From the NCBI GenBank assembly GCA_045568995.1, contig JBJKZY010000045.1, positions 4,281 through 68,280 of the forward strand: a DNA stretch of 64,000 nucleotides, given 5' to 3'. The DNA is from Fidelibacterota bacterium. GTDB taxonomy: Bacteria > Fidelibacterota > Marinisomatia > Marinisomatales > UBA1611. Below are positions 49,649 through 51,469 of this stretch, piece by piece; positions within the stretch are counted from its first letter, which is position 1; every line of letters begins with the position of its first letter. Below the pieces are notes generated by a model that saw nothing but the letters and a program-made list of their open reading frames with translations, did no database searches and was not told the origin of the DNA. A program made the position numbers and the translations under genes.

Positions 49649-51469
49649 ATGAAAAAGAGTAAAAAATATTTTATTCTTATTATAAGTGTGGTAGCAACAG
49701 TCACTATGATATTTTCACAAGGTGACGGTTACCTTTCTCAAAAATTAATGGTGGAAAATAATATTAGAGATAGAGTAAAAGACGCATTGTCTAAACTTAT
49801 AGAATCTCATAAATATGTAATTAATGTTGATGTAGAGTTAGAAGTACTGGAGGAAGTAAATGAGCAATTCACTTATTATGCCCCAAGATCAAATGAGAAT
49901 AAAAAAGAAAAGTTTTCTCCAGCGCAGGAGACTGCAAACGCCTTGAATGAAATTCAAAAGAAAATGGTTCAGAGCGATATGGCTTCCCAAAAGGATAAAT
50001 ATGCAATTGGGCTACCAATACCCGGTTTTGAGGTAGATGTATCTTCATCTAAAAATAGTCCTAGTCCTTCTATTCAGTCACCAAAACCTTTTTCTCCAAA
50101 AGAATTAAAAGCAACCTATCAAGAAGCAGGGGAAGATGAACCTGCAGAAAAGGAAGTTGTGGACAAAGTTTTCTCAACTAAAAGGCCTTCTAAAACTGTA
50201 ATAAAAAAGATGGATCTTTCTCTTATTCTGCAAGAAGGTGCTGCTCCTGAGTTGATAGAAAACATAAGGCAGTTAACTATGGCTGCAGCAAAATTTGATC
50301 GCCAAAGAGGAGATAAGCTTACTATAATGACAGCTAGTTTTAAGGAAAGACGAGATCAAAGAACGGCTGAGCAGGTAATGTTAAAAAACATTGCTGAAAA
50401 AATTGATGTTATGGAAAGGAAAAGATCTTCAGAGGCAACAGATTGGCGCGATGATATTCAAAAATACAAGGAAGAAGTTTTACTTCGGCGTGAAGAGGAT
50501 TTAGCTAGCTTTCAATCTCAACTTGCTCAATTAGATAAAGTTAGGCTCCAAGAAGCTGCTGAATTTGAAAAAAAAGAATTGGCAAGAAAAGATTCCATTC
50601 GAAATTCTAAACTAGAAAATGAAATTGAAGCTTTGAAAGATATGCTTACTGTAAACGTATCAAAAGAGGAAACAAAAGATAAGAAACTTGATTCTACACG
50701 GTTCGCAATGCTCGATAATGAAATGCAAGGTCTCAGGAAAATGCTCTTGCAGGCAATGTTGCAGGATTCTTTAGAGGGTCAACAAAAAGCTCAGGCAAAA
50801 ATTGCTGAAGAATTAGCTTCTAGAGAAAAAGAAAAAGCCTCAAGGGATTCAATTATAGCTGATAAAATTGCAGCATTGGATGCTGTTCAAGCAGACCTTC
50901 AGGCTTTAGGAGCAGAAAATGGGGAAGGTTTGGATACTAAAATGCTTATAATTATCGGGCTTGGTGTTTTAAGCGTTATTTTACTGGTGTTAATGATTTT
51001 ACAAAAAGGGAAAAAAGGCATGCAGGCGCAAGGTGCATATCCTCCTGGACCTATTCCTCCTTATCCATATCCTCCCCCACCTAGAAGAAGACGCCGACGT
51101 AAAAAGAGACCGGAAAAAGAGGTAAAAGAAGAAGCAAAAGAAGTAAAAGAAAAACCTAAAGAAACTAATCAGGATCAAAATGGATTAACTGAGCCTGCTC
51201 CACCGGTTTCCGCAGCTCAAGTTGCTGCTATGGAAGCTCAAAATGAAACTAATAATGACAGTGTTACTCAAATGGTTGATGATCCAAATGTATTAAAAAG
51301 TGAGATTGATGATATAAGAAAATCTGTTGTTTCAATGAGCGTTGGACAGCCTGCAAGGACGTCAACCATAGTTAAAGAATGGTTAGAACAGCCTGCTCCT
51401 GAAGCTCCCGCACCAGACGAATCGTCTAGTGATGATGGTGGGGAAGAAGAAGAAAGCGGCGAAGAATAA
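49649..51469 (+). CDS. Divergent FliF-like ring protein (RBM3 only, long coiled coil, TM, FliG-binding-like tail)
   Basis: ENNIRDRVKDALSKL...INVDVEL and IKKMDLSLIL...IRQLTMAAAKFD.QRGDKLTI...F resemble the split FliF RBM3; C-terminal P..TSTIVKEWL resembles the FliF C-terminal helix; lies directly upstream of fliG. Confidence 0.7.
   Translation: MKKSKKYFILIISVVATVTMIFSQGDGYLSQKLMVENNIRDRVKDALSKLIESHKYVINVDVELEVLEEVNEQFTYYAPRSNENKKEKFSPAQETANALNEIQKKMVQSDMASQKDKYAIGLPIPGFEVDVSSSKNSPSPSIQSPKPFSPKELKATYQEAGEDEPAEKEVVDKVFSTKRPSKTVIKKMDLSLILQEGAAPELIENIRQLTMAAAKFDRQRGDKLTIMTASFKERRDQRTAEQVMLKNIAEKIDVMERKRSSEATDWRDDIQKYKEEVLLRREEDLASFQSQLAQLDKVRLQEAAEFEKKELARKDSIRNSKLENEIEALKDMLTVNVSKEETKDKKLDSTRFAMLDNEMQGLRKMLLQAMLQDSLEGQQKAQAKIAEELASREKEKASRDSIIADKIAALDAVQADLQALGAENGEGLDTKMLIIIGLGVLSVILLVLMILQKGKKGMQAQGAYPPGPIPPYPYPPPPRRRRRRKKRPEKEVKEEAKEVKEKPKETNQDQNGLTEPAPPVSAAQVAAMEAQNETNNDSVTQMVDDPNVLKSEIDDIRKSVVSMSVGQPARTSTIVKEWLEQPAPEAPAPDESSSDDGGEEEESGEE

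Follow-up and report, generated by a model that had tools for sequence, protein, structure and literature searches.

In the bacterial flagellum, the ring-building motifs RBM1 and RBM2 of FliF surround the type III export gate, RBM3 forms the S ring, and the C-terminal helix of FliF co-folds with the N-terminal domain of FliG (FliG-N). To our knowledge, the flagellar rotor of FliF and FliG has so far been known only within flagella. Outside the flagellum, the sporulation protein SpoIIIAG has an RBM with a beta insertion and forms a collar ring, and is not known to be coupled to FliG or MotAB. In the Tol-Pal and TonB systems, a stator of the MotAB family works with an outer-membrane partner and with a long helical protein that spans the periplasm; CpoB combines a coiled coil and a TPR domain. 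Here, we describe a FliF-like protein encoded in 64,000 nucleotides (nt) of DNA from a Fidelibacterota bacterium (NCBI GenBank assembly GCA_045568995.1, contig JBJKZY010000045.1, positions 4,281 to 68,280 of the forward strand; this whole stretch is called the window in the following), together with the gene cluster to which it belongs.

The cluster comprises, in this order, genes for a secreted beta-sandwich protein, a predicted outer-membrane beta-barrel with a TPR domain (the barrel-TPR protein), MotA, MotB, the FliF-like protein and a FliG-like protein, all in the same direction and separated by gaps of 5-44 nt. On balance, we lean towards reading the FliF-like protein as the membrane-ring subunit of a flagellum-independent, MotAB-driven rotor that originated from a duplicated flagellar rotor/stator core. 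The strongest evidence is the combination of dedicated MotA and MotB genes upstream, a FliG-like gene downstream, and a canonical FliF coexisting with the FliF-like protein in flagellated relatives.

The FliF-like protein has RBM3 but neither RBM1 nor RBM2

The gene and the part of it that can be matched to FliF are located as follows:

49649 to 51469, forward strand: FliF-like open reading frame (ORF), 606 amino acids (aa)
49718 to 50341, forward strand: aa 24-231 of the FliF-like protein, RBM3 and beta-collar/loop region (Pfam, PDB profile search, AlphaFold2 model, Foldseek and VIA)

The sole Pfam family detected in the protein was PF08345 (YscJ_FliF_C), covering aa 47-231 with 24.8 bits at a cut-off of 23.8, and PF01514 (YscJ_FliF, the family of RBM1 and RBM2) had no Pfam match in it. 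The PF08345 score is near the cut-off, but it is not due to chance, because relatives, PDB profile, Foldseek and VIA all lead to FliF. Among 20 diverse family members, PF08345 was matched by 15 at E ≤ 0.01 (13 of them above the cut-off, the best with 45 bits), and PF01514 by none. A profile of 59 family members had FliF as its top three PDB matches (E-values 1.8e-4, 6.6e-4 and 0.011), all located in the RBM3 region. No NCBIfam family covers the protein.

The fold comparisons gave the same answer. The AlphaFold2 (AF2) model of the FliF-like protein had a mean predicted local distance difference test score (pLDDT) of 68.9, with values of 84-91 in the RBM core. All 18 Foldseek matches in the PDB at E ≤ 0.001 were to FliF (17 MS-ring/RBM3 structures and one integrative FliF model). 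FliF likewise occupied the top 15 rows of VIA-align (Z 10.3-14.6), of which 14 were RBM3/collar ring structures. Residues 22-232 of the model correspond to residues 228-438 of Salmonella FliF (VIA Z 14.6), and it is at FliF residue 228 that the fold matches begin. Unrelated VIA rows followed below FliF with Z of at most 9.3. The injectisome SctJ proteins share the generic RBM fold (EscJ Z 8.6, PrgK Z 8.3), but score far under FliF RBM3, and they are not coupled to FliG or MotAB.

The periplasmic domain of the FliF-like protein is therefore RBM3 with the collar/loop region and nothing else. Compared with Salmonella FliF (PDB 6sd1, 6scn, 8t8p), RBM3 and the beta-collar/loop are of the same length, and an FD..RGD....F motif at the end of RBM3 is common to both. 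A GLPIPGFE motif is kept in the collar loop (P125 invariant, G126 and F127 in at least 90% of 59 rows). Unlike FliF, which has a first transmembrane (TM) helix, RBM1 and RBM2 in this position, the FliF-like protein has a signal-like segment directly before RBM3, and its RBM3 and TM helix are separated by a helical insert (123-208 aa across the family). Since RBM1 and RBM2 are absent, the protein is without the part that could surround an export gate.

The FliF-like protein was also compared with canonical FliF of the same phylum. In genome G030, canonical FliF has both PF01514 and PF08345, and a BLASTP comparison of this protein with the FliF-like protein of the window gave nothing significant, the best match (E 0.14) being at the FD..RGD motif.

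An earlier note on this DNA, which was written from the sequence alone, had proposed an RBM3-like periplasmic domain without RBM1 and RBM2. Both parts of this proposal agree with the Pfam results for the protein and its 20 relatives, the start of the fold matches at FliF 228, and the Foldseek and VIA results. The note had also placed an insertion where FliF has its beta-collar. Here it was mistaken, as aa ~77-171 are the counterpart of FliF's own collar/loop, of the same length and in the same place.

The FliF-like gene is widespread and independent of flagella

At least 1849 of 7999 scored candidates belonged to the FliF-like family at E ≤ 0.001, and a library of 1.84 billion proteins contained 194 representatives, without a flood of canonical FliF matches. 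Named members were all from Marinimicrobia/Neomarinimicrobiota. The gene was present in 34 of 41 relatives. For the phylum as a whole, we used a sample of 201 genomes with a completeness of at least 85%, 159 of which were high-quality. The FliF-like gene was found in 143 of the 201 (about 70%) and in 116 of the 159. It was not found in any of the 18 genomes of family f12 (1-Mb genomes) and found in only 4 of the 20 genomes of family f25.

The four f25 matches (G128, G142, G166 and G175, all of genus g76) have one in-frame TGA each, and the gene of two f27 genomes (G127 and G214) has one TAA each. These in-frame stops may reflect pseudogenes, recoding or sequencing errors.

As a marker for the flagellar export apparatus, FlhA exceeded the cut-off in 49 of the 201 phylum genomes and, at the level of the order, in 16 of 101. 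For the family to which the window belongs, the counts were 0 of 11 and 0 of 9 genomes. By hand count, the FliF-like gene was present in 107 of the 152 FlhA-negative genomes and in 34 of the 49 FlhA-positive ones. Of the remaining FlhA-positive genomes, two had only a weak match (E 1.4e-4), probably to canonical FliF, and 13 had none.

Two sets of carriers were then compared for other flagellar components. In five near-complete carriers without flagella (92-99% complete), rod domains, PF01514 and FliMN_C were each found in 0 of 5 genomes. FliG_C had exactly one match in each of the five, adjoining the FliF-like gene. In five flagellated carriers, a canonical FliF with PF01514 was present in addition to the FliF-like protein (5 of 5, E 1e-52 to 1e-59). 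A canonical FliG was encoded beside it, scoring 134-147 bits versus 59-74 bits for the FliG-like copy, and a separate MotB was located near the canonical fliF/flhA genes in all five. The coexistence with canonical FliF, FliG and MotB, together with the presence in genomes without FlhA, therefore identifies a paralogous, flagellum-independent module with its own stators. The module is neither a relic nor a flagellar accessory.

The cluster encodes its own stator pair and a FliG-like rotor protein

Three genes next to the FliF-like gene encode homologs of flagellar motor proteins:

47914 to 48699, forward strand: MotA/PomA-type stator subunit, 261 aa (PF01618, E 1.6e-26)
48706 to 49605, forward strand: MotB-type stator subunit with TM helix, plug and OmpA-like peptidoglycan-binding domain, 299 aa (MotB_plug, E 6.4e-15; OmpA, E 7.2e-9)
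51489 to 52424, forward strand: FliG-like rotor protein with N, M and C domains, 311 aa (FliG_C, E 8e-18; FliG_N, E 7.8e-13; FliG_M, E 3.6e-9)

The cluster order was shared by loci of the family to which the window belongs and, to the extent covered by the contigs, by 15 of 15 loci representing other families of the order. The genes flanking the cluster vary between loci, and some loci have an additional TPR gene. In contrast to fliF, the FliF-like gene is not linked to export-gate, rod or hook genes.

As in the flagellar motor with its MotA5B2 or PomAB stators, all three FliG domains are present, along with MotA and a MotB that has plug, Asp and OmpA-like domain, and charged residues are conserved on both the stator and the rotor side. 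PDB matches of MotA to MotA/PomA structures had E-values of 1.9e-34 to 1.6e-31, and the FliG-like protein matched Thermotoga maritima FliG (1lkv) with E 1.7e-19. Residue conservation was assessed in 17 sequences at 46-76% identity. In MotA, R95, K96 and E102 were invariant (17/17) and aligned with the ARR..LE segment of solved MotA. The MotB Asp in FADMMTLL and the DPVK(L/I) plug were likewise found in 17 of 17 sequences. The most conserved segment of the FliG-like protein, LPQKKQAMYEP.E, was almost invariant, and K261, K262, E267 and E270 were nearly so.

The EHPQR motif in the middle domain of FliG is the site of FliM binding. In an alignment to T. maritima FliG, the EHPQ..R site reads EEAP..E in the FliG-like protein (family consensus EEPR), which fits the absence of FliM and FliN. 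The FliG-like protein thus differs from FliG in lacking EHPQR and in that no FliM/FliN was found with it (FliMN_C 0 of 5), and the stators differ from those of the flagellum in being dedicated to the cluster and separate from the flagellar ones. The canonical torque contact is formed by MotA Arg90/Glu98 with FliG Asp289/Arg281 (PMC7564593). Judged from the alignments, the conserved stator and rotor charges of the cluster may be taken as signs of a working motor core.

In each of five non-flagellated genomes (G005, G012, G018, G115 and G034), a second MotB_plug gene was seen outside the cluster (38-44 bits, frames of 244-374 aa), which amounts to a further MotB-like system.

A long helical region separates RBM3 from the membrane and a conserved tail

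Outside the RBM3 and collar region, the FliF-like protein can be divided into five parts:

49649 to 49717, forward strand: aa 1-23, basic n-region and hydrophobic stretch of ~16 aa (Kyte-Doolittle, alignment of N-termini)
50342 to 50932, forward strand: aa 232-428, charged, proline-free helical stalk (AF2, composition)
50933 to 51013, forward strand: aa 429-455, single strong TM helix with K/R-rich sequence after it, on the cytoplasmic side (Kyte-Doolittle, AF2)
51014 to 51283, forward strand: aa 456-545, Pro/Arg/Lys-rich cytoplasmic linker, predicted disordered (composition, AF2)
51284 to 51469, forward strand: aa 546-606, two conserved helices (546-566 and 568-580), tail motif and acidic tail (AF2, conservation)

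The N-terminal segment is less hydrophobic than the C-terminal TM helix (Kyte-Doolittle 1.87 versus 3.26). It stops right before a conserved Q in 100 of 101 distinct N-termini, and the residue at position -1 to this Q is small in 96 of 100 (S 36, A 31, G 29). We consider aa 1-23 to be probably a signal peptide that is cleaved by signal peptidase I, and otherwise an N-terminal anchor, the small residue at -1 being the one basis for the cleavage reading. The conserved Q itself was dropped as evidence, because the Q-rule holds for Bacteroidetes and not for the whole group of Fibrobacterota, Chlorobiota and Bacteroidota (FCB; PMC5837995), and because the secreted proteins encoded near the FliF-like gene do not begin with Q.

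Residues 233-428 contain no Pro and are 40% charged. AF2 predicts helices from 236 to 342 (107 aa) and from 350 to 422 (73 aa) with a low-confidence break at 343-349, so that both a hairpin and an extended stalk are allowed. The distance of the RBM3 ring from the membrane depends on this geometry, with a predicted stand-off of ~27 nm if the helices are collinear (180 helical residues x 0.15 nm) and ~5 nm in the case of a hairpin. Between the end of RBM3 and the TM helix, 57 of the 59 aligned members had 123-208 aa (the other two had a TM score of at most 2.0 and were left out). In the closest group this length was exactly 201 aa in 26 of 26 sequences. As these sequences are only 60-94% identical, the constant length marks the helical segment as an old, length-constrained trait of the family. 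A crude heptad score did not set the helical region apart from the rest of the protein, and for this reason we make no coiled-coil claim.

The TM helix was placed at aa 431-455 by AF2 and had a peak of 3.26 in a Kyte-Doolittle window of 19 residues. The linker that follows has 16% Pro and 19% K+R, with pLDDT mostly below 50 and one short helix (522-534). As in FliF, the TM helix is followed by a cytoplasmic tail that ends in a conserved helix with an invariant Trp, and a fliG-like gene adjoins. The tail motif SVVSMSVGQP..TSTIVKEWL is conserved, with W578 in at least 90% of 59 rows. In distant relatives, aa ~528-581 were the best-conserved part of the protein (48-81% identity), and residues 544-580 were 61-70% identical in most loci. 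We take the motif to correspond to the FliG-binding C-terminus of FliF, which would make SMSVGQP...IVKEWL a putative FliG-binding site.

The earlier note had described the region between RBM3 and the membrane as a coiled coil of about 190 residues. Long, charged and proline-free helices are indeed predicted by AF2 and are a family-wide feature; coiled-coil packing is not shown, and the heptad score was unremarkable. Its single TM helix and its tail ending in TSTIVKEWL were confirmed. Its statement that the ring could not house an export gate is supported, as RBM1 and RBM2 are missing and no rod, PF01514 or FliMN_C domain was found in the five near-complete relatives. As a further hypothesis, the note had suggested that the coiled coil could raise the ring across the periplasm and serve as a drive shaft instead of the rod.

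Putative envelope partners and neighbouring genes

The upstream part of the cluster and its downstream border contain the following features:

46488 to 47909, forward strand: barrel-TPR protein, 473 aa (AF2, Foldseek; TPR_2, E 1.7e-8)
45281 to 46462, forward strand: secreted beta-sandwich protein, 393 aa (signal-like N-terminus; PF13620 at aa 31-98)
44480 to 45151, forward strand: small TPR protein of 223 aa, counted from a TTG (Pfam TPR_1 under the cut-off, E 8.4e-6)
52441 to 52472, no strand assigned: hairpin of 14 pairs with A-runs and T-runs on either side (scan for terminator-like sites)

The barrel-TPR protein was modeled with ~12 strands (aa ~44-285), a disordered linker, a helix of 75 residues (322-396) and a TPR domain (AF2, pLDDT 61). 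Foldseek gave 105 PDB matches at E ≤ 0.001, and among the matches listed all were outer-membrane barrels, including KdgM (TMt 0.72), NanC, OmpG, FapF and PorV. On the basis of the model, the protein is predicted to be an outer-membrane beta-barrel. A homolog was found in 15 of 15 loci of the order (in two of them truncated where the contig ends or divided into two matches), and the family alignment had a mean column identity of 65%. An atlas search gave a lead to YjbH-like clusters (0.93). Clusters resembling the barrel part were labelled Gemmatimonadota and Candidatus Poribacteria (YjbH-like, PF06082), which hints at related barrels in other phyla, though not necessarily at the whole module.

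The beta-sandwich protein has a CarboxypepD_reg/transthyretin-like domain, and its family profile found only transthyretin-like domains in the PDB. The C-terminal ~240 aa are very conserved. Their matches were limited to hypothetical proteins with a Fidelibacterota label, and neither atlas nor PDB profile searches led to a known family. A homolog was encoded in 13 of the 15 loci of the order, while in the other two the contig ended first or only the last 43 codons were present. Mean column identity in the family alignment was 60%.

The small TPR protein appears to be only loosely associated with the cluster, as its adjacency is not constant and its identity in relatives is 27-41%. In genome G034, a TPR protein of 308 aa is encoded instead between the beta-sandwich and barrel-TPR genes. 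Since the TTG start overlaps the upstream gene by ~100 nt, the ORF probably begins further downstream. Around aa 45-49, FLICC may represent a lipobox-like site.

At the other end, the hairpin follows the FliG-like gene and precedes a convergent gene for pyruvate phosphate dikinase, and is likely a two-way terminator that closes the cluster. The scan found 15 terminator-like sites versus 6.7 expected. Promoter-like sites were not above chance (32 versus 32.2 expected). RNA libraries from three studies yielded contigs over all genes of the cluster, spanning the junctions barrel-TPR/MotA, MotA/MotB, MotB/FliF-like and FliF-like/FliG-like. These contigs are consistent with expression as one unit, but they are weak evidence, because DNA carry-over is possible.

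Two further genes of the window deserve mention. A homolog of biopterin-dependent aromatic amino acid hydroxylases (PF00351, E 3.2e-24; 43654-44583, forward strand) lies just upstream of the cluster, and is near it in many, not all, relatives. A MORN_2-repeat protein of 1009 aa (E 1.6e-41; 55236-58265, reverse strand) adjoins the pyruvate phosphate dikinase gene; relatives of the same family share this neighbor (73-93% identity), whereas other families of the order do not.

A model for the machine and its alternatives

Taken together, the cluster, which is without export gate, rod and filament, probably builds a different and so far undescribed envelope machine. We propose that its dedicated MotA and MotB would conduct ions, with the OmpA-like domain of MotB as their anchor in the peptidoglycan, and that the MotA units would push on, and turn, a ring of FliG-like subunits. 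Each FliG-like subunit would be held one-to-one by the cytoplasmic C-terminal tail of a FliF-like subunit, presumably through its N-terminal domain. The FliF-like subunits would span the inner membrane once and would send their long charged helices, as a hairpin or extended, into the periplasm, where they would end in an RBM3/beta-collar ring. Without RBM1 and RBM2, this ring would offer no seat for an export gate. Through the collar loop with GLPIPGFE in particular, it may engage the secreted beta-sandwich protein, the helix-TPR arm of the outer-membrane barrel, or both. Ion flow at the inner membrane would in this way be turned into mechanical work at or near the outer membrane.

Several points weigh against this model. 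The genome from which the window comes is a metagenome-assembled genome of 1.56 Mb that is only 52% complete, so that the absence of flagellar genes has to be argued from relatives. The torque helix of the FliG-like protein has a deletion of three residues compared with T. maritima FliG, and its acidic pair and one Arg cannot be aligned one-to-one with the canonical Arg/Asp-Asp set. All three motor proteins miss the NCBIfam equivalog cut-offs (FliG-like 100.9 versus 226.7 bits for TIGR00207, MotA 170 versus 394 bits for MotP, MotB 114 versus 259 bits for the MotB family). The AF2 monomer has a predicted TM-score (pTM) of 0.29, which makes the arrangement of its helices unreliable. Stalk length differs by 85 residues between lineages, and a rigid shaft across a periplasm of fixed width is therefore hard to fit. 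The roles given to the beta-sandwich and barrel-TPR proteins come from synteny alone, and ring formation and rotation are steps that we infer.

The variable stalk is better accommodated by a non-rotary energizer, in which MotAB, as in Tol-Pal and TonB, would cycle the FliF-like stalk and thereby pull or gate the barrel-TPR protein, leaving the FliG-like protein as a mere adaptor. A flexible tether would tolerate differences in length more easily than a shaft. Moreover, the parts are parallel to those of TolQ/TolR/TolA with CpoB: a stator pair, a helical stalk of ~200 aa in the place of the long helical spanner, and a barrel with a 75-residue helix and TPR in the place of coiled coil plus TPR. 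Yet TolA and TonB bind the stator by their own TM helix, whereas here a cytoplasmic FliG-like ring would mediate the coupling, and the spanner terminates in RBM3, a domain that builds rings. RBM3/collar was a ring-building module in every solved relative that matched. In addition, MotA-type stators, here with conserved R95, K96 and E102, and the FliG C-domain that they face, here with conserved charges, are the torque-generating pair of the flagellar motor (PMC7564593). For these reasons we regard a non-rotary energizer as unlikely, though it is the alternative that survives best.

A second alternative would make the module the motor that the phylum's type IX secretion system (T9SS) is missing, replacing GldL and GldM and driving secretion or the movement of surface adhesins. 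The T9SS occurs in the same superphylum (PMC9127263), and PMC5596340 mentions many proteins with T9SS C-terminal domains in SAR406 bins. In outline, the GldLM/PorLM motor also resembles the proposed machine, as an inner-membrane, ion-driven stator drives a long periplasmic spanner that reaches outer-membrane components, and the fold matches of the barrel-TPR protein include PorV-like barrels. SprA_N was above the cut-off in 198 of the 201 genomes and GldL in none of them. In five near-complete genomes, GldM_1st, GldL and GldN were each found in 0 of 5, and GldK gave only sulfatase-domain matches below the cut-off. The Gld models, however, matched in no control genome, so that their silence is not proof of absence, and PorV is one of many generic barrel matches. 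The shaft proteins are not homologous, and GldM is gripped inside GldL without a cytoplasmic rotor of the FliG type. No synteny with SprA was seen. Finally, SprA occurs without the module: it was present in 18 of 18 genomes of family f12, versus 0 of 18 for the FliF-like gene, and in 20 of 20 genomes of family f25, versus 4 of 20. With SprA nearly universal, including in lineages without the FliF-like gene, co-occurrence does not support the idea of a T9SS motor, which we consider improbable.

As a separate observation, the type IX translocon of the phylum seems to come with no recognizable GldLM motor, according to Gld models for which there was no positive control.

A third alternative, which we regard as very improbable, is that the module is left over from a lost flagellum and decaying, or belongs to an ordinary flagellum as an accessory, in either case without a function of its own. 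In its favor, the genomes with FlhA indicate flagellated members and thus probably flagellated ancestors, two family members are labelled FliF/YscJ by IMG, and rotor genes are reported for 11% of non-motile species in PMC12199754, which offers both relic and alternative-function readings. Against it, the reading frames are intact and show strong conservation throughout the phylum, functional residues are invariant, architecture and gene order are fixed, non-flagellar genes included, and the stalk has kept its 201 aa in all sequences of the closest group. The coexistence with a complete canonical FliF/FliG/MotB set and the same frequency with and without FlhA also speak against it.

Novelty and implications

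In public annotation, members of the FliF-like family are hypothetical proteins or automatically named FliF/YscJ. A literature search that reached few subscription journals found no published description of the cluster, nor of Marinimicrobia, Fidelibacterota or Marinisomatota in connection with FliG or MotB. The nearest statement is the one on rotor genes in non-motile species, which perhaps have another function (PMC12199754).

We class the cluster as a flagellar rotor/stator core put to use in a probable non-flagellar machine, and there is a real chance that this machine is a new kind of rotary envelope machine. A more specific version, in which a rotor of FliG and FliF-RBM3 type with its own MotAB, without a type III secretion core and with a periplasmic ring working on an outer-membrane barrel complex, would constitute a fourth kind of ion-driven rotary envelope machine, is offered tentatively, as possible but rather doubtful.

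Found in about 70% of the Marinimicrobia/SAR406 genomes sampled, flagellated or not, the cluster provides a concrete, conserved and apparently expressed case of a minimal rotor/stator set that has putative envelope partners of its own and an MS-ring subunit of altered design. It makes several questions testable: whether the torque of FliG and MotAB can be coupled to an output other than rod and filament, how an RBM3 ring would assemble without RBM1, RBM2 and export gate, and whether the flagellum's motor module can exist separately from its secretion module, a point of relevance to the origin of flagella. If the proposed reading is true, the module may represent, or descend from, a motor-without-secretion stage that is relevant to the origin of the flagellar motor. 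Its output could be surface movement, secretion or envelope maintenance. The cluster hints at an as yet undescribed envelope function in marine bacteria of very high abundance, and the machine would be widespread in one of the most abundant uncultured phyla of the ocean.

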